In this document: one piece after another, positions 27,650 through 55,660 of the stretch
Position numbering within the stretch: the stretch's first letter is position 1
Layout: each line of letters starts with the position of its first letter
Assembly: GCA_007378955.1 (NCBI GenBank)
Contig: VMGY01000003.1
Span: forward strand, 26,264 to 90,263
DNA length: 64,000 nt
Direction of reading: 5' to 3'
Source of the DNA: Parcubacteria group bacterium Athens0714_12
GTDB lineage: Bacteria; Patescibacteriota; Patescibacteriia; UBA2591; VMGY01
Made by a program: the position numbers and the translations under genes
Notes under the pieces: model-generated
Database searches by the model: none
What the model was told of the DNA's origin: nothing
Seen by the model: only the letters and a program-made list of their open reading frames with translations

Positions 27650-28531
27650 TTAATATCCTAAATTTTCTTTGCACATATTATCAGTAGCGAGCGTCCATCC
27701 CACGCCGCAAATATCTCTGCATTCCCCTTTTAAAGGAAGTAAAGTATATTTATATTCAAGTTGAGGAACGCATTCATTGTCAATTAATTGACAACCGGGC
27801 TGAAGTTCGCAAGCATTTATTCCAAAAAACCCGCATCTCTCCAGTTTACTTGACCAAGAAACTAACGCATCGCTGCAGCAGACTATCTTTGAATCAACTG
27901 GCGGTATTTTATTTTCTATTTCATTTCTTGTTAAACCGCACATGCGCAAGACCTCGCATTTATTGCCTGTCCACCAGCAACCCCAATTATATTGCCCTAA
28001 ACATGCTTCTCTGCCTAAAAAACCGCATTCTTGCCCAGTTTTTTTCGACTGGACATATTCTTTTATATAAATACACTTATCATCAACCCATTGGCAACCT
28101 GGTTCAGGCTCGCATTTTTCTTTGCCAAGCAAACTGCATTTATCCTGAATAATGCCTATTTCGGGCAATTTTAATTTTACCAAATTTGGATTAATGATAT
28201 AAAGCAAACCATAAGAACAAAGCGCTAAAATCAAACCAACCACGGCATTGGAAATTGCTTTTCTCGCTTCGCCGATTTGCGAACCGCTGCCCGCGGCAGT
28301 CAGCCACTGCAGACCGCCCCACATAATCATCACCACTGCCACAACACTAATCGCTCCCAAGCCAAAAGTGTACCAAGCCGCGATGTAAGAAGCTAAATCC
28401 TTGCCCGCGCCTTCCTGCCCGGGAATAGGCACCTGCAAATCAATCGCCTTATCTTGCGCTTTAACTATCAGGCAAAAGCCAAAAACCAATAAGCTCGCTA
28501 AAATAATTTTTGAATATCTTTTATTAAACAT
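27650..28531 (-). CDS. secreted membrane protein with VirB2/TrbC-pilin-like N-terminal module and about 170-aa cysteine-rich C-terminal domain
   Basis: Signal peptide, two hydrophobic helices (WYTFGLGAISVVAVVMIMWGG..; VVGLILALCSYGLLYII), then about 26 Cys. Confidence 0.4.
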   Translation of the reverse strand: MFNKRYSKIILASLLVFGFCLIVKAQDKAIDLQVPIPGQEGAGKDLASYIAAWYTFGLGAISVVAVVMIMWGGLQWLTAAGSGSQIGEARKAISNAVVGLILALCSYGLLYIINPNLVKLKLPEIGIIQDKCSLLGKEKCEPEPGCQWVDDKCIYIKEYVQSKKTGQECGFLGREACLGQYNWGCWWTGNKCEVLRMCGLTRNEIENKIPPVDSKIVCCSDALVSWSSKLERCGFFGINACELQPGCQLIDNECVPQLEYKYTLLPLKGECRDICGVGWTLATDNMCKENLGY

Positions 28532-29088: not shown

Positions 29089-29646
29089 TTATTCCCATTT
29101 AATTTCATTTACTTTCCAATCTCCATTTTCTTTCAAAAAGGTTATTTTTGCTTCTTGATAATATATCTTGTTATCCGAAGGGCTGTCTGAACTTTCCTGC
29201 CTTTGGCAATTTACTTTAATGAGCGCTTGATTTGAATTAAAACTTTCTATTTCACTATTTAAAAATTTCGCGGAAAATTTTTCATAAGGCTGTTCAGCGC
29301 TTTGTTTTCGCAAGGCTTGTTTTATAAAATCATCAGCCCATTTTCGCATCGCCTGAGTCATAAACGGCTTCAAATCAATAATATTTTCGTAATTATTTTG
29401 ATTGGAATAATTGCCATAACTTTCGGCAAAGAAAGAAGCCAAGCTTTGCAATTCTAATTTAAGCTTTGTTTCTTCATCCGCGATTGGAATAATAACTTCT
29501 TCTGCTATTTTATTTTCCGCCTCTTGATTGATATTATTTGATTCTTTTTCCGCCGGCGCTAAATTATTTTTATAAATAAAAAAACCGCCAATTAAAAATA
29601 TAATTATTAGTAAAACGACAAATAAAATTTTTAGATTAGTGGGCAT
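29089..29646 (-). CDS. membrane-anchored hypothetical protein (185 aa)
   Basis: N-terminal TM; no family recognised. Confidence 0.45.
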   Translation of the reverse strand: MPTNLKILFVVLLIIIFLIGGFFIYKNNLAPAEKESNNINQEAENKIAEEVIIPIADEETKLKLELQSLASFFAESYGNYSNQNNYENIIDLKPFMTQAMRKWADDFIKQALRKQSAEQPYEKFSAKFLNSEIESFNSNQALIKVNCQRQESSDSPSDNKIYYQEAKITFLKENGDWKVNEIKWE

Positions 29647-29883: not shown

Positions 29884-31773
29884 TTATTTCTCCCGCTCCA
29901 TCTCTTCCTCAAACTCCTTTTTGGCGGCTTCTATTTCCAAAAGCTGGCGCGGGTCTGAAGTGATAAGCTGGTCTTCCGCGTAAGAAGCGACTACTTTAAT
30001 CGCCGCGTGTTTGGCGCCGGCGAAAAAAATTCCTTCTCCCACTCCGCTTTCCAAAAGCAAATATTTCTCTCCTTCGGTGAGCATAAAAGTTTTAGACACC
30101 AAATCTATCGCCGCCGGCGATTGCTTAAAAAGCAATTGCAAGGCGGAATTATTGACAATCGCGTGGCCATAATCTGAACTCAAAAAATCCTGAACATCTT
30201 GAGTAATCACCGTGATGCCTAAATAATACTTGCGGCATCTTTTAACCAAGGCGTAAATAAATTTGGCTGAATCTTCGTTTTGCATCAGCCACCAAGCTTC
30301 ATCAACAACCAGCATTCTTTTCTTCATTTCCGTTCTGACGATATTCCAAATATAATTGATTATAGTATAAATAGCGATCGGCCTCAATTCGTCCTCCAAA
30401 TCACGGACGGAAAAAACAACTAATTGATTTTTGGTTTCAATATTAGTCGGCTGATTCAATAAACCGGAAAAAGTTCCTTCGGTGTATTTTTTCAAACGCT
30501 CGGCTAAACTTTCCCCGCCTTCCATTCCCTGCAAAACTTCCAATAGGTCGCTCATAATCGGCGCTTCTATCTGTTGGGAAAGATTTGAGGAGGGGGTAAT
30601 GTCTTTTTTGGCGTAAGTTTCCAATAAAGCTCTATCCAATAACGAATCTTCTTCTGGAGTAAAATGCAAAACGCCTTTTTCGTCCGGCACGCCAATCATT
30701 AATTTTAATAATCCTTTTAAGGTGATAACAGCTGTTCTGATAATATCTTCTGTTTTAAAATCTTTGGAAAGCGGCTTGGGCAAATCAAAAGGATTGATTT
30801 TGCTTTCCGAGGCCAAAGAAATATTTATATAACTTCCGCCCACCGCGTCGCAAAGGTGCTTATATTCTCTTTCCGGGTCAATGATAATCATCTCAACGCC
30901 AAACATCATACTCCTTAAAACTTCTAATTTTACGAAATAACTTTTTCCCGCGCCCGACACGGCGAAGACAGTCATATTCGCGTTCTCCAAAGAAAAACGG
31001 TCAAATAAAATCAAACTATTATTATGGCGGTTAACGCCGTAAAGAATGCCGTTATCGCTGGTGACGTCAGCTGAAACAAATGGAAATGAAGAGGCGCAAG
31101 GCGAAGTGTTCATATTAAAAGCAATCATCAGCTCGTCATTAGCCAAGGGCAAAGTGGAATTAAATCCTTGCTCTGACTGATAAAAACTTCTTCGCGAATA
31201 TATTAATTTTGAGCCCAGCAAAGATTCCACTTTTTCAGAAAGCAAATCCAATTCTTTTTGAGAATCAGCGTAAATAGTGATATATAAACTGAATTGAAAA
31301 AATTGTTCAATGCCCTGGGTCAAATCATCTCTTAATTTTTCCATATCCCTTAAAGCGGTTTCTTTTATCGGGTCTCGGGGAGCGCCTTTCTCCACCCCCG
31401 CGGAAATTTCCGCCTCTAATATTCCCACTCTATTTCTTAATTGCTTTAAAATAATTTCTGATTTAACTTTATAAAAATACATCGCGATATCCAAAGGGGC
31501 GGTTAAATTAATGATTGGCGTAAACCAGCCCACATTAATATAGCGGGGATAATTAATGACAAAAAGAGTGCGGATGAATTTATTATTCAATTCCAAATTA
31601 TAAGGATTGATACGCATGGAAGCGGGAGCAATTAAATCACGGACAGAAAATATTCCGGCGCGATAAGCCTCTTCGGACCTTATTAATTCTTTTTCCTCTT
31701 CAATAGTAAGTTTAATTTTTTCTTTATTATCCTTTTCCTTTTCTTCTATTTTTATTTTATTCGCTTTGAACAT
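29884..31773 (-). CDS. VirB4/TrbE-family type IV secretion ATPase (ATPase domain)
   Basis: Walker A VSGAGKSYFVK, Walker B VVDEAWWLM, VirB4-like length and C-terminal organisation. Confidence 0.75.
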   Translation of the reverse strand: MFKANKIKIEEKEKDNKEKIKLTIEEEKELIRSEEAYRAGIFSVRDLIAPASMRINPYNLELNNKFIRTLFVINYPRYINVGWFTPIINLTAPLDIAMYFYKVKSEIILKQLRNRVGILEAEISAGVEKGAPRDPIKETALRDMEKLRDDLTQGIEQFFQFSLYITIYADSQKELDLLSEKVESLLGSKLIYSRRSFYQSEQGFNSTLPLANDELMIAFNMNTSPCASSFPFVSADVTSDNGILYGVNRHNNSLILFDRFSLENANMTVFAVSGAGKSYFVKLEVLRSMMFGVEMIIIDPEREYKHLCDAVGGSYINISLASESKINPFDLPKPLSKDFKTEDIIRTAVITLKGLLKLMIGVPDEKGVLHFTPEEDSLLDRALLETYAKKDITPSSNLSQQIEAPIMSDLLEVLQGMEGGESLAERLKKYTEGTFSGLLNQPTNIETKNQLVVFSVRDLEDELRPIAIYTIINYIWNIVRTEMKKRMLVVDEAWWLMQNEDSAKFIYALVKRCRKYYLGITVITQDVQDFLSSDYGHAIVNNSALQLLFKQSPAAIDLVSKTFMLTEGEKYLLLESGVGEGIFFAGAKHAAIKVVASYAEDQLITSDPRQLLEIEAAKKEFEEEMEREK

Positions 31774-31786
31774 AAAATAATTTAAT

Positions 31787-32464
31787 TTATTGGTCTATCC
31801 TTAATTTTTCTAAACTTTCTAATTTTTCCTGCTCGGCAATTTCCGGATTATAAGTTTTATAAAATAATTCTATCAAACTTTGCGTATCCAAGGGAACTGA
31901 TTTCAATCCCATACTCGCCAATCCGCTCATAATCGTATCCGCTCTTTTGAATAATTCCAATTTATATTTTTCAAATAAAGTCCTTTTTAATTTTATGATC
32001 ATCACCGCGGAAAGAGTTTCTTGCAATCTGATAAAAAAATTCTTTGCTCCACCGGAAAATGGCGAATAAGAGACAGCCACATAAAAATATTTGCTCATAA
32101 TCTCGCCCATCTCCACTAATTCCTGAATATAGCTGATATATTCCGCGGTCTGCATTTTCAACAAATCATTTTCCTGATTTTCTTCAACTTCTTTTAATTT
32201 CTCTATGTAAGAAGAAATATTCAGTTTCCTTGATTGAACAATGATTTGCACTGAAAATTCCAAACTATTTAAAAAATTAACATATCCTTGAATAATCGCT
32301 TTTTGCTCTTCTTCGCTTTTTAAAGCAAAGTTAATTGAAGAAACTAATAGGATTGTTCTTAAACTGCCGTCTTTTAAAACCACGCAATCGTCTTTTATTT
32401 CCGCGATATCCAAATATTTTTGCGTGGAAGGCAAACTCTTTTTTTTAATTATATTTTCTGGCAT
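31787..32464 (-). CDS. putative VirB4 N-terminal domain encoded as a separate ORF
   Basis: LDIAEIKDDCVVLKDGSLRTILLVSS..SEEEQ resembles the VirB4 N-terminal start; ends 13 nt before the ATPase ORF start. Confidence 0.45.
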   Translation of the reverse strand: MPENIIKKKSLPSTQKYLDIAEIKDDCVVLKDGSLRTILLVSSINFALKSEEEQKAIIQGYVNFLNSLEFSVQIIVQSRKLNISSYIEKLKEVEENQENDLLKMQTAEYISYIQELVEMGEIMSKYFYVAVSYSPFSGGAKNFFIRLQETLSAVMIIKLKRTLFEKYKLELFKRADTIMSGLASMGLKSVPLDTQSLIELFYKTYNPEIAEQEKLESLEKLRIDQ

Positions 32465-32486: not shown

Positions 32487-32912
32487 TTACTCTTCCCGGT
32501 ACGCTCCGCCGGTGTCAACAATCAATGATAATTCCGAAAGCTTGGAGCTAATTAATTTTTTTCTGATTAATTCCGCTGGAATATCTTCTTTTATTGATAA
32601 TTTTATTTCTTCCTTCTCTTTTTCTTTTATTGTTTCTTTCCCCCAGATTCGCAAGGCTGGCTTTCTAAAAACCGATTGGATAAAATTCAAAAGAAAATAA
32701 TGGAACATTTGCCCGCCCGGCTTAAACCAGCCGAATAAATAAACAAAAAAGATAACCATCAGGCCTTCGGTGACAAATAAAGAAAAATCAGCCAGCTTAT
32801 AACTAATAACCAAAATTATTCCGCCCGCTAACATAATAATAAATTGCCGGGCGGTAATGGGCCCGATAATTTTTGGCTCGATTTCAATAAATTGCGGGAC
32901 TAAAAACTGCAT
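32487..32912 (-). CDS. VirB3-like small membrane protein
   Basis: 141 aa, two TM helices, immediately upstream of the VirB4-like genes. Confidence 0.45.
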   Translation of the reverse strand: MQFLVPQFIEIEPKIIGPITARQFIIMLAGGIILVISYKLADFSLFVTEGLMVIFFVYLFGWFKPGGQMFHYFLLNFIQSVFRKPALRIWGKETIKEKEKEEIKLSIKEDIPAELIRKKLISSKLSELSLIVDTGGAYREE

Positions 32913-32915: not shown

Positions 32916-34265
32916 TTAAAATCTTAAAGATTTGTTTAAATCCACTAGGGCGATGATTTCTTCCTCGGTTAAAGCAATTTTTCCCTGCTCAATCCTTTCT
33001 TTTATTACTTCTTTGGTTTCTTTGTTTTTTTCTATGCTTTCTCTGCCTATTTCTAAATATATTCTATAAACCTCGCTTTGCCGCCAATTCCTGATGCCCT
33101 GAATCTTCTTGGAAAATGATTCCTTTTCTAAAAGGTCAATCTTTTGCTTAATTTTCAAAGCGGCTCCTTGCGCCTCATCAGCCAATTCCCTAAAATCTTT
33201 CAATTTAAAATATCTTAATTCCTCCAAAGGCCCTATTACTTTCGGGGGCGGCGCTTTTATATCTTCCATCAATGTTTTATTTGTTTCTATTTTCGGCTTC
33301 CATTCTGTGTTAATAATTTTTTCCTGTTGTTTATCAATTTCTTTTTTCCCAATTTTTGGCTCGGTTATTATTTTAGGAATCTTTGGTTCTATCAAAACCG
33401 GCGCAACTGATTTGGCGGGTTCAGCAATTTCAACGGGCTTATTTTCCTTTAAGTCAGAAAAGGAAATTTTTTCCTCATTTTTAATTTCCGGTTTCAAGGC
33501 GGGCAAGTTAGAATTTTCTATCGCTTCAGCGGCTTCGTAAATTTTAACTTCTAAATCTTTCGTAATAGGAAATTTTATGGGTTTAACCGGCTTAGAAATC
33601 TCAAATTTGGGCAAGGGCGCGTCTTTTTTAAATTTCTCGCCGAATTTTTTAAATTCTTCTTTAAAAATCTTTGCTGTTCTTTCCGCTTCGCTCTCGCTTA
33701 ATTCCAAGCCGCCGATTTTTTTGGATTTCATTAAAATTTCTTTGGTCTCTATCTCGTCCCTGATGTCCCTTAAGTGAAGGGCAATAATGCTTTTTAGCCG
33801 CTTGCTCAAAATTTCGTCGGCAAAAGGCAAATTGACTTTTCCCGCGATTTCCTCCGCCAATTTTTCTACGCTTAAAGGCTTGATTTTTCCCGCCTTTTCT
33901 CTTATTTTTTCTAATTCCTCGTCCTCCAAAGCTCCAGCAGGAACGAAGGAGGATTTTTTTTCTTCCGAAGGAATATCGGAAAAAGAAAATTTTTCCAAAT
34001 CATCCATAATAGGATTGAAAACCTTTTTTAAAACCTCTTTGATATTTTCTATATCCTCTTTCTTTTCAAGATGATAATATTCTCTTAAAAAATTTTCCGA
34101 CTCTTTTATCTTTATAGTTTTAGTGGCGATAAAAATAACCATTCTTAATAAATCAATATTATATTTTTTTTCAGCTTTTTCCAAAAATTCTAAAACTTCC
34201 GGCTTTTCAATCCTCTCTTTTATTTTCTTTGGCGCTCTTTGAAATTTTTCTAAAATTTCTATCAT
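32916..34265 (-). CDS. soluble Lys/Glu-rich hypothetical protein (449 aa) in the T4SS-like cluster
   Basis: No TM; low complexity; no family recognised. Confidence 0.45.
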   Translation of the reverse strand: MIEILEKFQRAPKKIKERIEKPEVLEFLEKAEKKYNIDLLRMVIFIATKTIKIKESENFLREYYHLEKKEDIENIKEVLKKVFNPIMDDLEKFSFSDIPSEEKKSSFVPAGALEDEELEKIREKAGKIKPLSVEKLAEEIAGKVNLPFADEILSKRLKSIIALHLRDIRDEIETKEILMKSKKIGGLELSESEAERTAKIFKEEFKKFGEKFKKDAPLPKFEISKPVKPIKFPITKDLEVKIYEAAEAIENSNLPALKPEIKNEEKISFSDLKENKPVEIAEPAKSVAPVLIEPKIPKIITEPKIGKKEIDKQQEKIINTEWKPKIETNKTLMEDIKAPPPKVIGPLEELRYFKLKDFRELADEAQGAALKIKQKIDLLEKESFSKKIQGIRNWRQSEVYRIYLEIGRESIEKNKETKEVIKERIEQGKIALTEEEIIALVDLNKSLRF

Positions 34266-34273: not shown

Positions 34274-36367
34274 TTAAGCGCTTGTCTTAAAATCATTAGC
34301 CCGCTTTTCCAATTCTTTTAAATATTTATTTAATTCTATTTCAACAACCGAACTAAGCGGCTTGCCATTGATATCTTTTTTGCTTCTTAATGAATTTTTT
34401 ATTTTCTCAATTTCTGAAGCTGCCGCTGATTCGTTAAGCTTGCTCGGGTCTAAAAATGAATAATTTTCTCCTTGTGTCTTGTTGGCAGTTTTGGCAGGCC
34501 GTGTCAAAGTTGCTATTTTTTTGTTAGCCTTATTTCTAAGATCAGTCTTATATTTAGCTTGATTGGCTACTTTTTCTAATTGCCCCATAATTTGTTCTTT
34601 TGTTTTTTCAGGCATTCTAAAAAACTGTTTTTCGTCAAGCCCGAGATAAAAACGGGCTTCTTCTTCGTATTTATCGGCATTATTCATGCCCGCGATTGCT
34701 TTGCCCATATCCGCCCCGGCTATTTTCCCGGCGGCTGTTTCCGCTTTTTCCAACGCCTCTTCTCTTTCGCTCTTCTCTCCCGGCGTTTCAGGGATTTCTT
34801 TTTTCGCGCGATATTTCTTATTTTCCCATTTCGGAGCAATAACACTGACTGCTTTATTATAATCGCTCGCTCCGCTAGTCAACTTAGCCAAAACACTATA
34901 TGCTGTTTGTTGATCTTTCCCTGCTAATCCTGTTCCTTCTTTTAGCAAATTCAATTCTTCCATTCCTAATTTTTTCTCTTTATTTAATTGTCTTCCAAAA
35001 GTTTCCGCTGTTACCCAATCTCTCTTTTTAACAGCCTGCTTAAAATTATCTTTAATTTCGTCTACATCTCTAAATAATCCCTCTTCTTCGCATTCCTTTG
35101 ACCTTCTATTTACTGATTTTTCATAAGCGCCAGACACGCCTTGGCGCATCATTGCCGCTTCTTCCTTTTCTTTTGTCATTGCCGTTCTGCCTTGCGCTGT
35201 TAAAAATCTTAATCCTTTTGTTTCGCTCAATTTTTCGCCAATGGCCTTGCCTGGGGCGCCCCAGCCCAAAGCTTTAGGCGCTTCCTGCGCTGTTTTTCTC
35301 AACCATTTCATTGGCGAATAACCGCTCTTGCCGCTGGCCCAGCCGACAATCGCGCCAGATGCTCTGCCGCCTAATTTGGTGGCAACGCCCAAAGATGTTA
35401 TCAGTATCGTAATGGCGAAAGCGTAATTCAAAATATTTTTTGATTCGCTAAGCTCGCTCAAAGTCGTAGTGATTACTCCTTCTTCATTGACTCCTTTAAC
35501 GCCAAAATCTCCGGCGATATCGCTCTGGAGAATTAGCAAAGAAAACCATAAAAAGAAAGCCAAAATAGGGCCGATAATAACCCAATTAGTGAACTGTTTC
35601 CACCACTGGGAAACATACCCGGAAAACGCCGGCACTAAATTTCCCATCCAAATAATCGGGGAAAGGACGACTAAAAGCCAAAGCATTACAACGCGAATTA
35701 ATAAAATTAGAAAAAACGCTAAAAGGACCACAAAACTGATAATAACAAAAATCAGATTCAAAATCATTGTGCCGGCTATGCTAAAATTGGCTAAACTCAA
35801 ACCATTGTCCTTGCTTATATTCCACATCGTGGAAAGGCCGGTCGCGTTAATCAAAACTCCAGCGGCGCTGTCTTTAAAAGCATTGACAAAAGTAATCATC
35901 ACTATTTGACCGGCGTCAATCAATAAGCCGCAAATCATTTTGCTGAAATTAATCATCACCGCGGCAATAACCAATTTGCCTAATAATCGCCTGTAATTCC
36001 AAGCTTCCTGTCCTAAAACCGTGCCAAAAGCCATCAATAAAAGAACAATAATAAAAAACATATTGCAAATATCCCTGACTATCAGCCAAGCGGTAGTGAC
36101 CGAAGGCACATTTATAAACTTATTAAATTGGGCGACTTGAAGTAAAAGATAAATAATACCCAAAGAAAGACTTCCCAAAGCCCAAGCCGGAATCCATAAA
36201 ATCCAACTGATCATTAAAAAAATCGCATTATAAAGCTCCGCGCCAACTTCTTTGATAACATTGTCTCCTGCCGCCAAAACCGGATTTTGCCAAAAAGAAA
36301 AAATTAAAATAGAAAATAGTACTATTAAAATTACATTGGCGATTAAATTTCTTTTGTTTCTTTTCAT
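34274..36367 (-). CDS. VirB6/TrbL-like polytopic membrane protein with long C-terminal soluble extension
   Basis: Signal-anchor plus at least 6 TM helices over the first about 330 aa, then a charged domain. Confidence 0.45.
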   Translation of the reverse strand: MKRNKRNLIANVILIVLFSILIFSFWQNPVLAAGDNVIKEVGAELYNAIFLMISWILWIPAWALGSLSLGIIYLLLQVAQFNKFINVPSVTTAWLIVRDICNMFFIIVLLLMAFGTVLGQEAWNYRRLLGKLVIAAVMINFSKMICGLLIDAGQIVMITFVNAFKDSAAGVLINATGLSTMWNISKDNGLSLANFSIAGTMILNLIFVIISFVVLLAFFLILLIRVVMLWLLVVLSPIIWMGNLVPAFSGYVSQWWKQFTNWVIIGPILAFFLWFSLLILQSDIAGDFGVKGVNEEGVITTTLSELSESKNILNYAFAITILITSLGVATKLGGRASGAIVGWASGKSGYSPMKWLRKTAQEAPKALGWGAPGKAIGEKLSETKGLRFLTAQGRTAMTKEKEEAAMMRQGVSGAYEKSVNRRSKECEEEGLFRDVDEIKDNFKQAVKKRDWVTAETFGRQLNKEKKLGMEELNLLKEGTGLAGKDQQTAYSVLAKLTSGASDYNKAVSVIAPKWENKKYRAKKEIPETPGEKSEREEALEKAETAAGKIAGADMGKAIAGMNNADKYEEEARFYLGLDEKQFFRMPEKTKEQIMGQLEKVANQAKYKTDLRNKANKKIATLTRPAKTANKTQGENYSFLDPSKLNESAAASEIEKIKNSLRSKKDINGKPLSSVVEIELNKYLKELEKRANDFKTSA

Positions 36368-36441: not shown

Positions 36442-36804
36442 CTACTTACTATTAGTCAAAATAGAATTAAAAATTTTAATAAATTCTGAGGCTTCTTGAA
36501 TTAAAAATTTACCTTCGTTGTTGCTACTTAAATTATTAGTATCAATAATTAATCTAAGCCAATAGCGACTTTCTTTTGATTCTTTCCTGGAAATTTTTAT
36601 TCTCATCATAAAGTCTTTTTTACTTAATGATTCATTCGCTTCAATATAGTTTGCCCCAACTGAACCACTGGCTCGAACTACTTGTCTAATTAACTCAATG
36701 TTTTCTACTGTTCTTACTAATTTTTTGCAAAATTCTATTACTCGTTTAGTAAAATTAAAAGTTCTTTCTTCTAAATCGTAATTTTGGTTTTGTATTTTGG
36801 TCAT
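36442..36804 (-). CDS. four-helix-bundle protein ('23S rRNA intervening-sequence protein' family)
   Basis: VRASGSVGANYIEANESLSKKDF..RISRKESKESRYWLRL matches the family signature (GANY.EA....S.KDF...S..E..E..YWL). Confidence 0.75.
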   Translation of the reverse strand: MTKIQNQNYDLEERTFNFTKRVIEFCKKLVRTVENIELIRQVVRASGSVGANYIEANESLSKKDFMMRIKISRKESKESRYWLRLIIDTNNLSSNNEGKFLIQEASEFIKIFNSILTNSK

Positions 36805-36856: not shown

Positions 36857-39800
36857 TTACGGTATCACCACTATCCGCCCGTCAAACATTTGACCGCCGC
36901 AACCGGCTTGATAGCCGCCGTTATTGCACCAACCCCAATTATCTTGAATCTGAATTGCCGGCCTAAAAACGCAACAGCCGCCATTAGTAATCCCTAAAAC
37001 AGGGCAAACAGCCTGCCAGCCGGCTCCGCCAATCTCGCACCTATAACTATGATAATAATTGAAATAACCTTCTAAACAAGCTTCTGGGGTATGCCCAAAA
37101 TCCCGGCTGTCGCATTCTCCTATTGCCAAATGATTTTTATAAAATCCCGGGAAAGGCCCACTCGCGCTTCCGTCGCCCCAATTAATAATTATATTTCTAA
37201 TGGGCATTTGGTCTTTGTCTACCAAGCTGAAAAATTTAAGACTTGTCCTTATTCTGCCCCTCGCCAAAATATCCCCGCTGTTCTGATTATTGATCGTCAT
37301 TCTATAATTCGCGTCTTGATAGCATTTTCCGCTTGACGGGTCGCAATCCAAAACGCCAACGCTTCTTATTTTTAAAGCCGATATTTGAGGCGCTCTGGAA
37401 GCATTGCTGGCGGTAAAAGTCACATCCCAAACATCGCTATTATTTACAGGCACGTATCCATTGCCAATATTATATTGATAAATTTGGTAAGACCGGGCAA
37501 AAATATCATGTAAACTTGATTTATTATTTTGATAATCATTATCCCCGATATAAAACATTTCCTGCTGAGAGCATTTTGGAAAATTCTCGTGGTCAATAAA
37601 AATAGTTTCTCTGTCCACCGCCCGATTAGGCAAAGCGGCAAAAAGAGGAGAGCAAGTACTGCTATAATTATAGCCAAGAGAATTAGTAAAATTACTTGTC
37701 TGCCAAACCCTGTCAGTCCAAGCTTTATTTTCCGCCCCTTGGGTAACTCCCGCTATTTCAGCGCATCTTTCGCCAGTACTTAAAATATTGCAATCTCCTT
37801 GGCTTAAATTAGGAATTATGGTTAAAGTGGCGGAAATATAACAGCCATTGCCGCCAATAACTTCGCAATCCCATTCGCATCTGTCATGCAAGCCTCTCCG
37901 ATATGTGCGGGTATTTCTCTCCACAAAGCCAAAGGGACAGCCATCGCATTCCCCCGAATCTTCATGATAACTTGCTCTCCAATCATAATTAAGTTCTTCT
38001 TTCTCCAAGCAATAAAACGGACCCTCGCCCAAACCTAATCCTCCGGCATTAAACCCGGCTTCCACATATTGATTATATAAATCAGAAGCGCCGACAATCA
38101 AATCAATAGGCATCCAGGTCAAACAGGCGAATTGGTCGCTTTTGCCATTGATGGTTTTACTCTTGTCTCTTTCCAAGCAATAGCCCTCCCAGCCGATATA
38201 ATTAACTTTTTTCTTAACTGGCGCGCAATGGCCATCTCCATCTCGGCAATCTTGAACTGTCACTTCTTGCCCGCAGAATTTTCCGTCTTCTTCTCCCCCC
38301 TGGCAAATAGAATCAGGAATAGTTAAATTATTTCCGGCAAAATATTTTTCTTCGCCACTGCCGTAAGACACTTTTTGATAATGACAATCGCAAGCCTCTA
38401 CTTCGCCATCGCCCGCGTCTTGGCAATAATTCGCGTTGGCAAATTCCGTGATTACTCTGGTGTTATTAGAAAAAGGGCTTTCTTTTTGAGGATACCCGCG
38501 GCAGGAAGAAGATAGCGCGCCGCCATTAGGCAAATTTCCATCTATGCCCGCCACGCACCGCTGGCTGTAGCAAAGCCCGTTTCTCCCTCCGATGTTGCAA
38601 GCCGAACCATTGGCGCTTCCCGACGGGCAATCGCCCAAAATATAAACTAATTTATTTTCCGGATTATCCAAACTGCCAAAATTAATTGAACTTAATAAAT
38701 GAATTTGATATTTATCAAACAAGGAATATCCTGAAAAATCCAAAGCTTCCCATTGACCTGTGTTCAAAGAAGCATAAACATCTTGAGTCAGAGGCTGAAG
38801 CAAATTAGGGTCATTTACTTCATTACTGCAACTAAATCCCCGCCCAAAACCTAATGACTGGTCGCAAAGAATCAAACCGCCGTCTTCGCAAACTTCTTTA
38901 TACTTGCCGATGCGGGAATCAAAAACCATATGCGTATTTTCGCAAGTAAGCCATTGCCCGCATTCTCTGTCTCTGAGCACTTTTAAAAGATTATCTTCGC
39001 CTTCTCTCGCTTGGCCATTGAAATTAATTCCCATTTTTTCTAATTTAACGCAACTATCTTTCCAATCTTCCTTAGAACAAAAAGAGAGTTTGTTATTATC
39101 CATGTAATAATAAGTTTCTCCTGTTAAATTTTCCGTATTTTCCTGATATGGCCTGAATTGCGTGCAGCCGCTGTATTTTGAAGGGCATAAGCCGGCCCAG
39201 CCAATATCAGGGTATCTATCTTCATCAATGTCACAATTTAAATTATTTACTTTAGTGAACCAGCCGGAAGTAATGACTCCGTTCAGATTAATATTTTCTT
39301 TAAACTCGCAAACTCTTTCGCCCGGGTCTTTAAAATAAGCCGTTGCTCCATTTGCTTCATATGCTTCGCATTTATCCTCGCTATTTTGGCAAAGTATCGG
39401 ACTGATTATTTTTTCCGGAGTAGAAATATATTGGTCGGGATTATTTTTTAAATAAACTGTTTGCCAAATTTGCCCATTGCTTGAATCTAATTTTAAATTC
39501 CCATTTGCGTCCAAACTCGGAAGGCCGAATACCCTGCAACCTTTATCATCGCTATGGCAATAATTCTTGGAATTAACCACGACATAAACCAAAGCATCGC
39601 TTTGTACGGTGACATCATCTATATTATCTCCTCCCTGATTAAAGCTTTCTTCATAAGGAGAAGATGAATTTCGGGTGTCTATTAAAAGTTCACAGCCTGC
39701 TTTGTCTTCTTCGCAAAGGCGGGAAAATGATTTTAAATAATATCTATTTCCTTTTTTATCTTTATATTCCTCGCAATTAATTTGCGCTTTTGTGATTGGC

Positions 39801-42800
39801 TGGTCGCAGACTGCTGGCGTATCCGCGGAATTTTTTATCAAATAAAGGCTGTCGAAAATTTCTTTCAAAATAATATTATCTAAGTAAAAAACTCCTTGTC
39901 CGTTAATCACGATGCTTTCTCCGCCATTTTCTTCCGCGTCAAAAGAAATCGGGCCTACGGTGTATGAATTCCATTCGTTAGAAATTAAGTTTACTCTGCC
40001 GAATTCCAAACTTAAATCAGGCCTTCGCAATTCGCTCAAAAGCTGGCCTTCTCCTTTTGCCCAAAAACTCAAAACATAACTTCTGCCTGGCAACGGCGAA
40101 ATTGATTTTGAAACCGCGCCGTTTACCCTTAAAGAATGCCCGCTGATATTTACCGATTCATTGCTGTTAACTCCTCCTTGCCAGCTCTGATTAGTTAAAT
40201 CTTCAAAATCATTTTTAAATAAAACGCGATAATTATTGGCGGACGCGCCTTTATATTCTCTGCAGCCCGCGCTCTGCCGGGAACATTTAACGCCTTGGCT
40301 GGGAATAGCCATATAAATACAATTATTATTCTGCCAAGTCCCGCCAGTCGCGTCGCAATCCTGCAAATTAGAATCTGTTTTTCTCAAAGGATGGCAATCA
40401 TCAGAACAGGTGATAGTTTTAGAATAAGAACGATAAAAAATTTCTCCATTGGTATTATAAAATTCCCGGCAATCAGGGTTGGTTAAAATTTTCTGACTGC
40501 AACTATTTGGGTCGTCAGAAACTAAATTAGGGTCGCAGCAACTGCCGGAATTATCAACAGTGGCAGGGACGCCCCCAGCCACTGACTCTAAATTATAAAC
40601 TTCCAATTGATATCCGGTTTGTTCGGAGCCGACCCAAGTATAAAAATTAGCGCAACTTAAATTCGGCTTCTGACATTGCCTTAAATACGTATAATATTCT
40701 TTGCCTTCGCCGCCTTGAGCCACCACATCCAAATTCGTAAATTCTTCGCAACCCGCATTCTGCGCTGAACATTTCTTCGCGTTTTTAGCGATTAAAGCCG
40801 TAAGGTCATTTCCTGTATCAAAAAAAGTGGGTGATTGCTTATAATAACGATAACCGACGCATTCCGCGGGGCATTTATTATAATCCATAATTACGCCCGG
40901 AATATCCGGCTCTCCCTGCCTTGAAACCGGAGTATAAAGCCGGCAGCCTAAATCATTCGCGTTGCAATAAGTCCGATTGCCATTAAGATAAATTTTTTCC
41001 ACCTCGGCATAATTTTCATATATATCATTTTCATCCGCATCAGCTTGCACAATATTAAAAACATCCGCCAAACTTCTATTTTCCGTAATCTTGCTTAAAT
41101 ATAAAAATTCTTCACAGCCTGATTCTTTCTCGTCGCATTTTTTAGCATTTTTATTTAAATAAATCCTGTCATTAACGTTCCATTGTTCATTAAGCATAGA
41201 CTGGCTGTACCATTTGCATCCGGCATTGTCGGCATCACAGCCATTTCTTTCCAAAGTATTGGTTAAATAGGAAAAAACCTTTCCGTCTTCCCGCCTGTAA
41301 GTTGAACAAGTGTCAAAATAAAAAGGGCATTCATCACCGCCTAAACGCCAAACATTTTTTTCTCTTAAGCAATATCCCCAGCCGCCCCGGCAATTACCAT
41401 TTTTGTCTTCACTGATGCAACTGGGCGTGTCCACGCAGACATCCTGCCTCCTATTGCTTTCATTGGATTCTAAAAATGTTCCTGAAACAAGGGACTTGCA
41501 TTGCGTAAGCGGCGCTTTTAAAAGCCACTCGGGGTCAATAAGATGAAAATATTTAGAATCAGGATTATCAAAATTATCCATCATTTGCTTTAAAGTCGCT
41601 TCTCCTTTGGAAATAGAGGCTGCTATTTCCCACCCTAAAGGTAAAATTCTAACTTTTCTTAATTTGACCAAATTACTATGGCAATAAGCGTATGTATAAC
41701 AATAAGCGTCTTGATTTTTAGCAATCTCTTCAGGAGAAATCAAAAGCCAATCGCCCTTGATGTATCCTTGCTCTATCGCTTCTCTGACGGTTAATTTTTC
41801 TCTTATCGCGTGAGCGAAATTTTCATCAATCGCGCAATTATCAATTGAGGCAAAACGAGTATCCTCCGGGCAAGAAACAAATTTGCTTAAAGGATTGTAT
41901 TCGCCGCCGGAACGGATATCAGGCACCGCCAAAGAAGAAAAGACATTTCGGGCTTTAGTGATGCCGCCCGCGCTTAAACCGCTTCCGAATCTGTTATAAT
42001 CTTCATCATCGCCTAAATCCATTAAACTCCAAAATCCTTTTTTCATTCTGTCCGTCAAGCGCGCCGTTAAAGTATTGGTAAAAATTGAAATTGTGTCCGC
42101 CCAAATTTCTCCGGTAAATGTTTTTTCCGGGGCATCCGCGCCTTTGATAGAATTTTTAACTTGTTCTTGGCTAAGGTCGGCCGGAGTTTCTATTTGTTCG
42201 GAAATAGGAGAGGTCACGTCTTTAACCCAATTACCAGCTCTCTTTAATTCAGCGTTAGTTTGAGCTTTTTGTTGGACGCTTAACATTTGACTGGATAAAG
42301 TTAAATAAGTTCCTATGTCATTTTGAGTTGGTTCAAAGCTAACCGCGAATCTTCTTAAAAAATTAGGGTCTTTCAAGGCTTTCTGCCAATTATTTCTCAT
42401 TTCTTTCCAGGTGCATTTTACTTCTCTCGGTTTTATTTCTTCACCCAATCCCAATTGAATTTTTAATTTAGCGGAAATATCTGAAGGTTCGCAGATGTTT
42501 ATATTCCATTGGCTGACGCAAACATCAGATATTTGCTTGTAAAGCCCTTCATCCGTTTTAGGGCAAGGACTTATTTCCGCTCCATTTATATCACTCAACC
42601 ATCTGCAATCAGCGGGGTCATTTGGATTATTGCACTGGCAATGAGTGCCAATAGGAGAACAAAAATTATTTTTGCCGCATCGCGCGGTTGAATTTCCCTT
42701 GCAATAGCCCGAACCGCTACTGACTAAAGTTTCCAGAAAATCTCCCGCCGCCGCGTCAGCCGCGTCTTCCAAATAAGTCTTCCAATTCTTAGTAAATAAA

Positions 42801-43147
42801 AGCGGTTTTTGGCCTTTATCTCCGCTGCCAATCCAGACCGCCGTGTCATAAGCGATTTTAGTGGTAAAAGTTTTTAAAGCGTTTTTAAAAGCAATCGCCG
42901 CCACCTTGTTATAAAGAAACTCCCCTGCTTTTTCTATTCTTTCCCATACCCATTTTGACATATTCATAACTGTTTGAATTGGATCTGTAACTACCCATTG
43001 AGCATTTGCTGGCTTTGGATAAAACAAAACAGGAATAATAACTTGCAAAATAAAAAATATCAAAACCACGCTGGCGATAACTTTTGTCTTGCCAGAATGT
43101 TTTGATGATTTGTTTTTGGGATTAAATTTCTGTTCCCGCCAAACCAT
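36857..43147 (-). CDS. giant (2096 aa) secreted cysteine-rich protein with a concanavalin/LamG-like lectin domain; putative surface adhesin of the T4SS-like locus
   Basis: N-terminal signal-anchor; more than 150 Cys in CxxC/CxC/CC-rich modules; central jelly-roll-like segment (about aa 975-1100) ending in YLDNIILKE. Confidence 0.65.
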   Translation of the reverse strand: MVWREQKFNPKNKSSKHSGKTKVIASVVLIFFILQVIIPVLFYPKPANAQWVVTDPIQTVMNMSKWVWERIEKAGEFLYNKVAAIAFKNALKTFTTKIAYDTAVWIGSGDKGQKPLLFTKNWKTYLEDAADAAAGDFLETLVSSGSGYCKGNSTARCGKNNFCSPIGTHCQCNNPNDPADCRWLSDINGAEISPCPKTDEGLYKQISDVCVSQWNINICEPSDISAKLKIQLGLGEEIKPREVKCTWKEMRNNWQKALKDPNFLRRFAVSFEPTQNDIGTYLTLSSQMLSVQQKAQTNAELKRAGNWVKDVTSPISEQIETPADLSQEQVKNSIKGADAPEKTFTGEIWADTISIFTNTLTARLTDRMKKGFWSLMDLGDDEDYNRFGSGLSAGGITKARNVFSSLAVPDIRSGGEYNPLSKFVSCPEDTRFASIDNCAIDENFAHAIREKLTVREAIEQGYIKGDWLLISPEEIAKNQDAYCYTYAYCHSNLVKLRKVRILPLGWEIAASISKGEATLKQMMDNFDNPDSKYFHLIDPEWLLKAPLTQCKSLVSGTFLESNESNRRQDVCVDTPSCISEDKNGNCRGGWGYCLREKNVWRLGGDECPFYFDTCSTYRREDGKVFSYLTNTLERNGCDADNAGCKWYSQSMLNEQWNVNDRIYLNKNAKKCDEKESGCEEFLYLSKITENRSLADVFNIVQADADENDIYENYAEVEKIYLNGNRTYCNANDLGCRLYTPVSRQGEPDIPGVIMDYNKCPAECVGYRYYKQSPTFFDTGNDLTALIAKNAKKCSAQNAGCEEFTNLDVVAQGGEGKEYYTYLRQCQKPNLSCANFYTWVGSEQTGYQLEVYNLESVAGGVPATVDNSGSCCDPNLVSDDPNSCSQKILTNPDCREFYNTNGEIFYRSYSKTITCSDDCHPLRKTDSNLQDCDATGGTWQNNNCIYMAIPSQGVKCSRQSAGCREYKGASANNYRVLFKNDFEDLTNQSWQGGVNSNESVNISGHSLRVNGAVSKSISPLPGRSYVLSFWAKGEGQLLSELRRPDLSLEFGRVNLISNEWNSYTVGPISFDAEENGGESIVINGQGVFYLDNIILKEIFDSLYLIKNSADTPAVCDQPITKAQINCEEYKDKKGNRYYLKSFSRLCEEDKAGCELLIDTRNSSSPYEESFNQGGDNIDDVTVQSDALVYVVVNSKNYCHSDDKGCRVFGLPSLDANGNLKLDSSNGQIWQTVYLKNNPDQYISTPEKIISPILCQNSEDKCEAYEANGATAYFKDPGERVCEFKENINLNGVITSGWFTKVNNLNCDIDEDRYPDIGWAGLCPSKYSGCTQFRPYQENTENLTGETYYYMDNNKLSFCSKEDWKDSCVKLEKMGINFNGQAREGEDNLLKVLRDRECGQWLTCENTHMVFDSRIGKYKEVCEDGGLILCDQSLGFGRGFSCSNEVNDPNLLQPLTQDVYASLNTGQWEALDFSGYSLFDKYQIHLLSSINFGSLDNPENKLVYILGDCPSGSANGSACNIGGRNGLCYSQRCVAGIDGNLPNGGALSSSCRGYPQKESPFSNNTRVITEFANANYCQDAGDGEVEACDCHYQKVSYGSGEEKYFAGNNLTIPDSICQGGEEDGKFCGQEVTVQDCRDGDGHCAPVKKKVNYIGWEGYCLERDKSKTINGKSDQFACLTWMPIDLIVGASDLYNQYVEAGFNAGGLGLGEGPFYCLEKEELNYDWRASYHEDSGECDGCPFGFVERNTRTYRRGLHDRCEWDCEVIGGNGCYISATLTIIPNLSQGDCNILSTGERCAEIAGVTQGAENKAWTDRVWQTSNFTNSLGYNYSSTCSPLFAALPNRAVDRETIFIDHENFPKCSQQEMFYIGDNDYQNNKSSLHDIFARSYQIYQYNIGNGYVPVNNSDVWDVTFTASNASRAPQISALKIRSVGVLDCDPSSGKCYQDANYRMTINNQNSGDILARGRIRTSLKFFSLVDKDQMPIRNIIINWGDGSASGPFPGFYKNHLAIGECDSRDFGHTPEACLEGYFNYYHSYRCEIGGAGWQAVCPVLGITNGGCCVFRPAIQIQDNWGWCNNGGYQAGCGGQMFDGRIVVIP

Positions 43148-43220: not shown

Positions 43221-43937
43221 TTATTCGGGCTTCGCGTTTTGCCGGTTCAACGCCTCTAAAAATAAAGTTCTTAAAGTCTTGTCATCAATTTGGTCCAAAA
43301 TTTCTTTTTCCGCGCCGCCTTCCATTAAAATGTTTCTGATGTCTTGAGCGGATAAATTTTCCAAGAGCGCTTGATTATTTTTTAAAACATCGGGGTTGAG
43401 ATTTTTTTCCAATGACAAATTTTCTGGGTTAATGCCCGTTTCTTTTATAGTTTCATTATACACTTCTTTTAAAGTCTTGTCATCAATTTTATCCAGAGTT
43501 TCTTTGTCCATTCCCGACTTGATTAAAAAATCTTTTATTTCTTCGGCGGATAATTCTGTTTCATCGCTTGACGAATCTTGTGAAGAAGATTCTACTGAAA
43601 CGGTTCCGCAAATTTCTCCTTCCGGACAAGAAGGATTTGTTCCCTTCTCTATTTCTTCTTTATCAAAAATTCCGTCGCCATCCGTATCTTCCAAATAAGG
43701 CGATGTCTTATAAACATTGAGCTCGTTAAAATCATTTAAGCCGTCTTTATCAGTATCTATATTATTTAAATCCAATAATTCCGAAACTTTTTGTTGTTCG
43801 CCTTGGTCATTGGCCGCTGAATTAAACGGCCTATAAATATTTGACTTGAATTGAAAAAAGGCGATAAAAAAAATCAGAATAGTTAAAAAACTTAAGCCCA
43901 ATAAAGATAATTTTTGCCGCTTGTTAAGAGATTTCAT
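43221..43937 (-). CDS. secreted calcium-binding protein with thrombospondin-type-3/dockerin-like DxDxDG loops and an internal duplicated domain
   Basis: Signal peptide; DTDKDGLNDFNE and DTDGDGIFDKEE loops; duplicated ETLDKIDDKTLKEVY / EILDQIDDKTLRTLF. Confidence 0.6.
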   Translation of the reverse strand: MKSLNKRQKLSLLGLSFLTILIFFIAFFQFKSNIYRPFNSAANDQGEQQKVSELLDLNNIDTDKDGLNDFNELNVYKTSPYLEDTDGDGIFDKEEIEKGTNPSCPEGEICGTVSVESSSQDSSSDETELSAEEIKDFLIKSGMDKETLDKIDDKTLKEVYNETIKETGINPENLSLEKNLNPDVLKNNQALLENLSAQDIRNILMEGGAEKEILDQIDDKTLRTLFLEALNRQNAKPE

Positions 43938-48968: not shown

Positions 48969-50009
48969 ATGGTTAATCCGTTTATTTCTAAAAGAGTAAT
49001 TTTTCCTCCAAGCGAACAAAAAAAATTTATTATTGAAAATAAAAAAACTCTTGATTTATCAGATGAAAAACTGGCTTATTTATTAAAAATCAACCATCGG
49101 ACATTAACTAACTGGAAACGAGAAAAATTTTCTATTTCATTAAAAGCAGTTAAAATTATTTTAAAAAAAACTGATGGGAAAATGCCAAAAAATGTGGAAA
49201 TTAAGGAGGCTTTTTGGTATGCAAACAAAGGTGCTAAATTAGGCGGATTGACTGTATATAAAAAATATGGGAAAATAGGCGGCGATCCAGAATATAGAAA
49301 AAAGAAATGGTATGAATGGTGGGAAAAAATCGGAAAATTTAATCCAAATGAATATTTTGTAGCCAAAAAAATTGTTATGCCTCAAAAAAATACGGATTTA
49401 GCTGAATTCATTGGGATTATGATAGGAGATGGCGGGATTACCAAAAATCAAATAACTGTAAGTCTTAATTATAAAACTGATAAACTTTACAGTATTTTTG
49501 TAAAAAATCTTATTAGAAAACTTTTTAAAATAAATCCGAGCATTTATATCAGAAAAAATCAATCCTTAACTAATATTGTTGTTTCACGAAAACGTTTAGT
49601 ATTATTTTGTAAATCTTTGGGTTTAAAAATTGGCGATAAATTAAAACAAAATTTAGATATTCCTCAATGGATTAAAAAAAATAAATCTTTCAAAATTTTC
49701 TGCTTAAGGGGCTTGATGGACACTGACGGTTGTATATTTAATGAATGCCATAAAATTAATGAAAAAAAATATTGCTATCATAGATTATCTTTTGTAAGTC
49801 ATTCAAAACAACTTCGTTCCTCAGTCTTTAAAATATTAGAAGAATTAGATTTTTCTCCAAAAATTCGCAATAATAGAAGTGTGCAATTAGAAAGTCGAAA
49901 AGATGTTATAAAATATTTTAATTTAATAAGCACTAATAATCCAAAACATAAGAAACGTTTTAAATATTTTTTAGGAGGGGTCGGGAGTGGTTGTCCCAAG
50001 CGGTCTTGA
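48969..50009 (+). CDS. free-standing LAGLIDADG homing endonuclease with N-terminal HTH-like domain; 3' end overlaps tRNA-Ser
   Basis: Two LAGLIDADG motifs: GIMIGDGG and LRGLMDTDGC. Confidence 0.75.
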   Translation: MVNPFISKRVIFPPSEQKKFIIENKKTLDLSDEKLAYLLKINHRTLTNWKREKFSISLKAVKIILKKTDGKMPKNVEIKEAFWYANKGAKLGGLTVYKKYGKIGGDPEYRKKKWYEWWEKIGKFNPNEYFVAKKIVMPQKNTDLAEFIGIMIGDGGITKNQITVSLNYKTDKLYSIFVKNLIRKLFKINPSIYIRKNQSLTNIVVSRKRLVLFCKSLGLKIGDKLKQNLDIPQWIKKNKSFKIFCLRGLMDTDGCIFNECHKINEKKYCYHRLSFVSHSKQLRSSVFKILEELDFSPKIRNNRSVQLESRKDVIKYFNLISTNNPKHKKRFKYFLGGVGSGCPKRS

Positions 50010-50062
50010 AAACCGCTAGGGCTGCAAGGCCCTCGTGGGTTCGAATCCCACCCCCTCCGCCA
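49974..50062 (+). tRNA. tRNA-Ser (anticodon TGA), long variable arm, CCA encoded
   Basis: ggagggg/cccctcc acceptor; loop ctTGAaa; variable arm tagggctgcaaggccctc. Confidence 0.8.

Positions 50063-54123: not shown

Positions 54124-55660
<1,537 letters not shown>

Follow-up and report, generated by a model that had tools for sequence, protein, structure and literature searches.

Giant cysteine-rich proteins encoded at a Patescibacterial type IV secretion locus are candidate host attachment modules

Introduction

What is the role of a 2096-residue protein encoded beside the genes of a type IV secretion system (T4SS) on the chromosome of a Patescibacterium? The question is raised by a 64,000-nt stretch of DNA from Parcubacteria group bacterium Athens0714_12 (contig VMGY01000003.1, positions 26,264 to 90,263; hereafter the window, numbered from its first letter), in which the gene of this protein, here called the giant, is by far the longest of the listed open reading frames (ORFs). 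An earlier note, made from the letters of the sequence, had proposed that the giant is a host-attachment adhesin or pilus-tip protein. We report that the giants are a real, very large and unannotated protein family, Cys-invariant and predicted to be extracellular, that is tied to the T4SS locus of Patescibacteria. The adhesin or pilus-tip reading is the best supported of those we considered, and we give it roughly an even chance of being correct.

The T4SS of Patescibacteria is essential to epibiotic growth in the one species tested (PMC10633639, PMC11665869). Surveys of the T4SS of this clade reported VirB2-like pilins, but neither an adhesin nor a VirB5-class subunit (PMC12102498, PMC12857230), and a recent review considers the VirB2-like pilins the exceptional feature of these systems (PMC12857230). 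VirB5 was listed only in one Gram-negative-type outlier, and no PrgB-like adhesins were found (PMC12102498).

Results

The giant gene is intact and belongs to a large family

The gene is located as follows.

36857..43147, (-) strand: giant ORF, 2096 residues plus stop codon; ATG start and a reading frame without internal stop

The ORF is intact and, as the earlier note had stated, the largest in the window. The product is byte-identical to the NCBI entry 'Uncharacterized protein Athens101410_107' of Parcubacteria group bacterium Athens1014_10, and the exact sequence is present on three public contigs. Pfam and NCBIfam scans of the full-length giant gave no family above threshold, PDB sequence searches (with the full giant, an N-terminal profile and a core-domain profile) gave no meaningful match, and a search of the literature at hand found no earlier description of the family.

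A hidden Markov model (HMM) of the N-terminal module (135 positions) was run on 1.84 billion representatives of 50%-identity clusters; it found 1654 at E<=1e-3, and 999 of these at E<=1e-10. Those representatives long enough to judge were almost all of 1.3-3.6 thousand residues. At 90% clustering the giant has at least 108 homologues. The core (residues ~10-1332) was present in all 107 of the 107 relatives retrieved, and the C-terminal half was common to only ~40%. With a median family length of 2552 residues the window giant lies at the small end. Homologues carry added modules, namely CBM_4_9, dockerin, VWA, PA14 and fn3, and such varied accessory modules are typical of ligand-binding surface proteins.

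The core motif GC[ED][EQ][FY]TNL[DE] was found in one scan in 338 GTDB species genomes, which are labelled Kuenen-, Falkow-, Veblen-, Magasanik-, Kerfeld-, Uhrbacteria and the like. The family appears to be specific to ABY1-type lineages, because the essential T4SS locus of a Saccharibacterium lacks an equivalent (see Discussion). The locus is clearly Patescibacterial, yet many of the GTDB records with it bear the title 'uncultured Gammaproteobacteria bacterium' (binchicken and SRP co-assemblies), which is probably a placeholder or an error.

Several fetched loci (L020, L022, L033, L043, L044, L045, L050 and L053) have a short giant of ~1300-2000 residues and a gap of 4-6.5 kb to the VirB6-like gene described below. 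This arrangement suggests either a split giant, the C-terminal half of which is encoded by a separate large ORF, or, as in L005, the replacement of that half by a different large protein.

Invariant cysteines and domain anatomy

The giant is conveniently divided into nine segments, all on the minus strand.

43001..43147, (-) strand: signal-peptide region, residues 1-49; basic n-region, ~22-residue hydrophobic core and P-K-P-A-N-A
42953..43000, (-) strand: predicted mature N-terminus, residues 50-65, QWVVTDPIQTVMNMSK; VirB5/TrbJ/DUF4141-type motif Q-x-V-V-x-D-P
42713..42952, (-) strand: predicted helix-loop-helix and third helix, residues 66-145; signature AFKNALxxFxxKIAYDTAVWIxSGxKGQKPLF
41936..42712, (-) strand: Cys-rich insert, residues 146-250 (10 Cys), followed by the Cys-free helical residues 251-404; low model confidence
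41273..41935, (-) strand: most conserved core domain, residues 405-625; R497, E507, D538, P539, W541 and many Cys invariant
40235..41272, (-) strand: first C-x6-C hairpin array, residues 626-971; C637/644, 671/678, 728/735, 793/800, 825/832, 955/962 and others; beta-rich
39848..40234, (-) strand: Cys-free beta-jelly-roll, residues 972-1100, resembling carbohydrate-binding module (CBM) families 4/9; from AlphaFold2 and Foldseek
39152..39847, (-) strand: second C-x6-C hairpin array, residues 1101-1332; 1145/1152, 1197/1204, 1253/1260, 1321/1328; end of the common core
36860..39151, (-) strand: variable C-terminal half, residues 1333-2096; AlphaFold2 beta domains at residues 1400-1560, 1590-1690 and 1920-2096, with residues 1695-1917 unmodelled

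The high cysteine content given in the earlier note was borne out: the giant has 96 Cys (4.58%, versus 0.94% in the 40 other window ORFs). The pattern of these residues is another matter. The repeated CxxC, CxC and CC modules of the earlier note amount to one, two and two occurrences, respectively, and the recurrent spacing is instead C-x6-C, which occurs 15 times versus 3.5 expected (maximum of 12 in 2000 shuffles), mostly in the form C-x5-GC-x2-[FYW]. In alignments of 38-77 homologues (~35% identity) essentially every core Cys was invariant, including C550, C571, C577, C586, C593, C607, C614, C637/644, C671/678, C728/735 and C759, followed by C793/800, C825, C883, C893, C918, C955/962 and onward. 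This invariance argues for a disulfide-stabilised extracellular fold, although the disulfides themselves are predicted from the Cys pattern. As CxxCH is absent and CxxC nearly so, haem or zinc-ribbon sites are argued against, and we consider a multihaem or metal-cluster protein unlikely.

The giant has a single hydrophobic segment (residues ~18-47) and no other segment resembling a transmembrane (TM) helix. Neither an LPXTG-like motif nor a C-terminal hydrophobic or TM segment was found. The Gly/Asn-rich C-terminal repeats that had been proposed were not recovered: self-BLAST of the giant gave no internal repeat and Tandem Repeats Finder gave no meaningful tandem repeat, the Gly content being moderately enriched (~13.5%).

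Two AlphaFold2 runs on the giant gave low overall confidence, with mean pLDDT (predicted local distance difference test) scores of 59 and 58. The confident islands were residues 410-560, 770-970, 972-1100, 1400-1560, 1590-1690 and 1920-2096. Three helices (H56-77, H81-107 and H122-143) were modelled near the N-terminus with pLDDT values of 35-65. Profile searches with the core domain (residues 405-625) found no Pfam or PDB relative.

The predicted mature N-terminus resembles those of VirB5, TrbJ and DUF4141 proteins

The N-terminal hydrophobic segment had been read as a signal-anchor. The segment is there, but it is followed by an A-x-A/Q site (the slash marks the predicted cut) that is nearly invariant in the family and is A47-N48-A49/Q50 in the giant, which argues for a cleaved signal peptide rather than an anchor. 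Hence, a Sec signal peptide is predicted to be cut after A49 to give the mature end ...PANA/QWVVTDPIQ.

This new N-terminus has relatives among T4SS proteins. The best Pfam match of the giant N-terminus was DUF4141 (PF13605), which scored 18 bits with the full giant and 22.8 bits with the N-terminal 145 residues, below the gathering score of 30. At E<=1 the same model also picked up 16 of 30 N-termini of the family, the lowest E being 1.2e-6. Ranked by the number of members matched, the top four NCBIfam families were TIGR02780 TrbJ, 'pilin minor subunit VirB5' and two other TrbJ models (the VirB5/TrbJ models concerned being PRK13860, PRK13874 and TIGR02780). These matches were weak (E 3.8e-5 at best), were obtained for some members with the N-terminus taken in isolation, and were far below the cutoffs; the window giant's own N-terminus gave no match to these models.

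When an 82-residue N-terminal piece was used as a tblastn query against 72,556 PLSDB plasmids (7.3 Gb) at E<=10, three matches were returned, a DUF4141 protein and two TrbJ proteins. The Parabacteroides DUF4141 protein reads ...ARA/QWVVTDPGNLAQ, in which the 8-mer AQWVVTDP is identical to that of the giant. A TrbJ fetched from a plasmid reads ...AHA/QFGGIVYDPTNYAQN (begins QFGGIVYDP) and a VirB5, likewise fetched from a plasmid, reads ...ARA/QFVVSDPATE.

Profile-profile alignment by hhalign of giant N-termini with VirB5/TrbJ/DUF4141 gave a probability of 95.1 (E 3.2e-8, 29 columns), and upon removal of the signal peptides a probability of 77.6 (E 1.9e-5, 16 columns) with residue 1 aligned on residue 1; the sets were enriched for motif-bearing members, chosen partly for the motif, and the scores should be read with that selection in mind. 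In the six-frame translations of 86 candidate phyla radiation (CPR) loci, 3.24 million residues in all, the strict motif occurred seven times, each time at the N-terminus of a giant.

VirB5, TrbJ and DUF4141 have a gene-order feature in common. Each gene lies just upstream of a VirB6-type gene (VirB6, TrbL or TraJ), the reference orders being VirB4-VirB5-VirB6, TrbE-TrbJ-(TrbK)-TrbL and TraG-DUF3876-DUF4141-TraJ.

The central jelly roll is of the CBM type

A central jelly roll akin to concanavalin or LamG had been noticed from the sequence. AlphaFold2 modelled the Cys-free residues 972-1100 with pLDDT values of 70-91, and Foldseek against PDB matched CBM16 (2zey), CBM29 (1w90), CBM4-2 (2y64) and a porphyran CBM (8xmz) with TM-scores normalised to the target of 0.45-0.69 and E values of ~1e-5. 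It also matched the CBM-like domains by which the binary toxins CDTb/Ib bind their receptors; overall the E values ranged from 1e-5 to 1e-8. We infer that these CBM matches fall on residues 972-1100. Judging from the model, the segment is a CBM-type beta-jelly-roll, CBM4/9-like rather than specifically of the ConA/LamG type; the jelly roll of the note thus stands, its affiliation does not. This was the sole fold that Foldseek against PDB assigned in the giant.

With Pfam CBM_4_9 (PF02018) the excised domain scored 16.6 bits (E 0.011), below the gathering score of 25.9 bits. Homologues exceed the CBM_4_9 cutoff (39-43 bits), mostly via a different, inserted CBM: most homologues have an extra CBM_4_9 inserted at the position of residue ~690, an insert that the window giant lacks. 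Families 4/9/16/22/29 and the CDTb/Ib domains have the beta-jelly-roll fold in common with the giant, which differs from them in that its domain falls below the Pfam gathering score and is embedded in a giant non-enzymatic protein. Glycan binding by the giant may be expected from the modelled fold.

As the family thresholds were tested and every score fell below them, we do not assign the giant to VirB5/TrbJ, DUF4141 or CBM_4_9. The features that hold are the N-terminal motif, the gene order and the jelly-roll fold.

The giant gene has a conserved place in a T4SS locus

The earlier note had placed the giant directly between a VirB6-like gene and a secreted Ca-binding protein. T4SS genes do lie downstream and a TSP3-repeat protein gene upstream, but a 120-residue ORF intervenes on the VirB6-like side. 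The neighbours are as follows.

43221..43937, (-) strand: TSP3-repeat partner, 238 residues; N-terminal TM segment, one TSP3-type Ca-binding repeat and acidic helical tail
36442..36804, (-) strand: four-helix-bundle protein, 120 residues, 23S_rRNA_IVP / TIGR02436; between the giant and the VirB6-like gene
34274..36367, (-) strand: TrbL/VirB6-like polytopic protein, 697 residues; ~7 TM segments and ~370-residue charged tail
32916..34265, (-) strand: highly charged protein, 449 residues, no TM segment; conserved downstream of the VirB6-like gene
32487..32912, (-) strand: PrgI family protein (VirB3-like)
31787..32464, (-) strand: TrsD/TraC-like N-terminal protein, 225 residues; resembles the VirB4 N-terminal domain
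29884..31773, (-) strand: VirB4 ATPase, preceded by the separate TrsD/TraC-like gene
27650..28531, (-) strand: VirB2-like T4SS pilin (PF18895), 293 residues; two-TM pilin core and Cys-rich ~170-residue tail

The conserved order is KsgA, small TSP3-like membrane protein, giant, TrbL/VirB6-like protein, PrgI, TrsD, VirB4 and VirB2-like pilin. Synteny was counted in 80 fetched loci and downstream genes in those 55 that extend 1.5 kb or more beyond the stop codon of the giant. A homologue of the 238-residue TSP3-like protein was encoded immediately upstream of the giant in 70 of the 80 loci, and KsgA upstream in 54. Downstream, on the same strand and often less than 1 kb away, a homologue of the 697-residue polytopic protein was found in 41 of the 55 loci, and PrgI, TrsD/TraC-like and VirB4 genes came next wherever the flank extended far enough.

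Adjacency in 70 of 80 genomes makes the 238-residue gene and the giant look like an obligate pair, and the smaller protein is a candidate chaperone, anchor or Ca-dependent partner of the giant. It has two acidic helical repeats (…EEIKDFL…IDDKTLKE… and …QDIRNIL…IDDKTLRT…).

Assignment of the 697-residue protein as VirB6-like is probable, on the basis of its topology, its position and the weak TrbL_3 matches of its homologues. The protein and four orthologues gave no Pfam match, and hhalign of its profile with VirB6/TrbL/TraJ was not significant (probability 20.7). PF19590 TrbL_3 was weakly matched by five of 18 homologues, and orthologues weakly matched the NCBIfam conjugal membrane families CD3337/EF1877 and MMCAP2_0566 of Firmicutes and Mollicutes.

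The 120-residue four-helix-bundle gene is probably a (mobile) passenger, because its position varies between genomes: in several of them it separates the TSP3-like gene from the giant, and in L001 it follows a 633-residue gene (loci listed for the shift: L023, L029, L031, L044, L045, L056 and L081). The separate TrsD/TraC-like protein agrees with the most abundant accessory component of Patescibacterial T4SS (PMC12102498). After VirB4 lies a 185-residue protein (29089..29646, (-) strand) that gave no significant family match and in which a TM segment at the N-terminus is combined with a small C-terminal alpha+beta domain; by its size, topology and position it is a candidate VirB8/PrgL-like subunit. 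The tail of the VirB2-like pilin has 20 Cys in which three C-x6-C-x5-GC-x6-C units are found, which is unusual for VirB2 pilins. A module shared between this tail and the giant was considered and rejected (BLASTP E 0.41).

The window is chromosomal and near the replication origin, with dnaA (61915..63270) beside the cumulative GC-skew minimum. This setting is exactly that reported for ABY1-class Patescibacterial T4SS loci (PMC12102498). Promoter and terminator scans of 29.5-44.4 kb gave nothing above shuffled expectation and were uninformative on operon structure.

Other features of the window

Besides the T4SS locus the window carries unlinked rRNA genes, many tRNA genes and genes encoding ComEC, RecG, RadA, PNPase, LeuRS and KsgA. 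The 23S rRNA match (4210..8365, (-) strand) spans 4156 nt versus the 2925-nt model and contains a LAGLIDADG_1 ORF (5063..5545), with a second LAGLIDADG ORF (3656..4144) just downstream. These ORFs probably encode homing endonucleases of introns or intervening sequences, which are common in CPR bacteria. The 16S gene (54125..55666) is unlinked to the 23S gene, the two being ~46 kb apart.

An Rfam tRNA-Sec match (49974..50058, (+) strand; 53 bits versus a gathering score of 47) overlaps the 3' end of a LAGLIDADG_3 ORF (48969..50009) and may simply be a tRNA with a long variable arm. ComEC (718..2934, (+) strand) is apparently split into 718..2085, having DUF4131 and Competence domains, and 2089..2934, having the metallo-beta-lactamase domain. 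Among the tRNA genes a 126-residue ORF (9437..9817, (-) strand) with 7.1% Cys, CxxC pairs and a C-terminal CANCH gave no Pfam match at E<=1e-3; from its sequence it looks like an HNH-type zinc-finger endonuclease.

Discussion

The giant as a T4SS attachment module

From sequence, predicted fold and gene context we consider the giant to be an extracellular subunit of a chromosomal monoderm-type (MPF_FATA-derived) T4SS in an ABY1-type Patescibacterium and most likely its host attachment or recognition module, a proposal that stands about as good a chance of being right as of being wrong. The export signal, the invariant Cys, the CBM-like fold, the variable modules, the synteny and the N-terminal motif favour the adhesin or pilus-tip role foreseen by the earlier note; physical association with the T4SS, localisation and binding are predictions. 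The link to VirB5 is a motif that covers 16-29 columns and is found in ~15-20% of members.

The closest functional analogues would be the tip adhesins of the VirB5/TrbJ/CagL type, although the architecture is like nothing known. Like the giant, VirB5/TrbJ proteins (A. tumefaciens VirB5, R388 TrwJ and pKM101 TraC) have a Sec signal peptide ending in AxA, a mature N-terminus Q-[FW]-V-V-[ST]-D-P followed by helices, and a gene immediately upstream of a VirB6/TrbL-type gene (in the window the 120-residue ORF intervenes). They also belong to systems that have a VirB2-like pilin, are extracellular, and have a proposed tip or adhesin role that by analogy may extend to the giant. The differences are that VirB5 has ~220 residues versus the 2096 of the giant, which has a Cys-rich, beta-rich body and a CBM; that the TraC/TrwJ fold, an elongated three-helix bundle plus a globular appendage, was not recovered in the low-pLDDT model of the giant; and that VirB5 has not been described in monoderm-type T4SS, the type to which the giant's host system belongs. 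The Bacteroidales DUF4141 protein has, like the giant, AQWVVTDP at its signal-peptide junction and a gene directly upstream of a VirB6-like gene (here traJ, with traG/DUF3876 on the other side), but it is a helical protein of 209 residues and the match of 22.8 bits does not reach the cutoff of 30.

In R388 a pentamer of VirB5 is seated on one of VirB6, and VirB2, as it polymerises, drives VirB5 outward to become the pilus tip (PMC9259494). [quoted passage not shown] Unlike the giant, TraH has ~450 residues, is part of a Gram-negative system and has an assignment validated by immunogold labelling. PrgB (aggregation substance) and PrgC are also large extracellular proteins encoded in MPF_FATA-type T4SS loci, and they mediate cell-cell contact. 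The giant is unlike the PrgB-type sortase-anchored adhesins in having no LPXTG, no C-terminal anchor and no PrgB domains (no Pfam match).

The mechanism that we propose is conveniently divided into four steps: (i) the giant would be exported by Sec and its signal peptide removed after A47-N48-A49, as the conserved AxA site suggests, (ii) the new N-terminus QWVVTDP together with the helix-loop-helix (H56-77, H81-107) would dock on the TrbL/VirB6-like oligomer encoded downstream, (iii) the polymerising VirB2-like pilin of the same cluster may then push the giant outward as a tip complex, and (iv) the core domain, about two dozen invariant C-x6-C hairpins, the jelly roll and the variable C-terminal half would form a rigid, oxidation-locked stalk that binds host glycans. 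For step (ii) the motif similarity and the gene order are observed and docking is proposed by analogy with the R388 VirB5-VirB6 stalk; the evidence for a VirB5-like docking step is circumstantial and we consider this step less likely than not. For step (iv) the Cys invariance and the CBM fold are observed, and the disulfides and the binding are expected from them.

Several results weigh against this proposal. In an unselected sample the motif was present in 33 of 222 members (strict form) or 45 of 222 (loose form), the likeness to VirB5/TrbJ does not reach the helical region, every HMM match lies below its curated cutoff, and the hhalign sets were selected as stated above. In size the giant exceeds any VirB5 about tenfold. 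Confidence of the AlphaFold2 model is low for residues 50-400, too poor to judge a VirB5 fold, and Foldseek with the model of residues 1-1000 gave no PDB match with E<0.28 and no match in PDB plus BFVD with E<0.05. No Dsb-like gene was seen in the window, and disulfides are assumed here in a CPR bacterium from anoxic groundwater. As for the locus, 14 of 55 giants were followed by no detected VirB6-like gene, the VirB4 block is not nearby in several loci (it is not adjacent in L003, L004 and L005), and the gene order relative to VirB4 is unlike that of virB operons. Finally, the essential T4SS locus of Southlakia, a Saccharibacterium, encodes no giant-like protein (supplement of PMC10633639).

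Other readings of the giant

Some of these same results would be expected if the giant were a generic surface adhesin or envelope glycan-binding protein, adjacent to T4SS genes because the near-origin region is stable, with a motif that is convergent or fortuitous. The whole neighbourhood, including the housekeeping genes of LeuRS, MFS and KsgA, is syntenic across genomes, and conserved order alone is therefore no proof of function. The three loci in which VirB4 is not adjacent, the minority of members having the motif and the failure of Foldseek to give a fold-level link to T4SS proteins all fit this explanation. However, it must account for a motif that starts exactly with the first residue of the predicted mature protein, just like those of VirB5, TrbJ and DUF4141, and occurs nowhere else in the six-frame residues of the CPR loci. 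It must also account for plasmid matches of the N-terminal piece that are exclusively proteins of the T4SS minor-pilin class, and for a giant gene that is on the same strand as the VirB6-like gene and often less than 1 kb from it. We judge a generic adhesin unlikely, though a serious contender.

The neighbouring channel subunit gene suggests another role, that of a structural wall-spanning or stalk part of a monoderm T4SS, an analogue of PrgC, VirB9/VirB10 or CagY that would form a conduit rather than bind a host. The large, rigid, disulfide-type build and the invariant core of residues 405-1332 would suit such a part, and most Patescibacterial T4SS classes are without recognisable VirB8/9/10 (PMC12102498). 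A conduit does not readily explain the CBM-like domain and the varied dockerin, VWA, PA14 and extra CBMs, typical of ligand-binding surface proteins, nor the poor conservation of the C-terminal half, nor the fact that, signal peptide aside, the giant has no TM anchor. This explanation is improbable.

CBMs are often appended to glycoside hydrolases, and thus the giant could be a secreted enzyme or toxin, an effector or polysaccharide- or cell-wall-degrading protein released against the host envelope. The invariant R497, E507 and D538, within residues 405-560 of the core, could in principle be catalytic, and a link to cell-wall degradation has been made for giant proteins of other bacteria that are ultrasmall or predatory (bioRxiv 10.1101/2023.11.21.568195). 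Searches of Pfam, NCBIfam, PDB sequence profiles and Foldseek gave no catalytic family. Moreover, the predicted export is by a Sec signal rather than a T4SS signal, and the window has, at another place, a gene for a dedicated LysM-CHAP hydrolase. We regard an enzyme or toxin as very improbable. A pseudogene, assembly artefact or non-coding ORF is effectively refuted by the 6.3 kb uninterrupted frame, the identical protein on three contigs and the hundreds of homologues that have the same invariant residues along the whole core.

Significance

Should the T4SS link prove wrong, the giants would still be an unannotated family, present in several hundred species, whose conserved core domain and Cys-hairpin repeat are both new, and would be of moderate interest. 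The family is a concrete, testable candidate for the host-contacting part of the Patescibacterial T4SS. If that is correct, the host specificity of a major class of CPR bacteria could be read from a gene, and VirB5-like tip subunits would be shown to occur in monoderm-type T4SS. A bolder extension of the attachment-module proposal, which we put forward as a rather doubtful speculation, is that ABY1-type Patescibacteria turned the small VirB5 tip subunit into a megadalton-scale tip organelle. This would be an oligomer (perhaps a pentamer) of disulfide-locked proteins of 2000-3600 residues that sits on a VirB6-like platform and is borne outward by a VirB2-like pilus, with swappable CBM, dockerin, VWA and PA14 heads that set the host. 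If true, monoderm-type T4SS would have in the giant their first subunit of the VirB5 class and also their first dedicated adhesin, and the host range of uncultivated CPR bacteria would become directly accessible.

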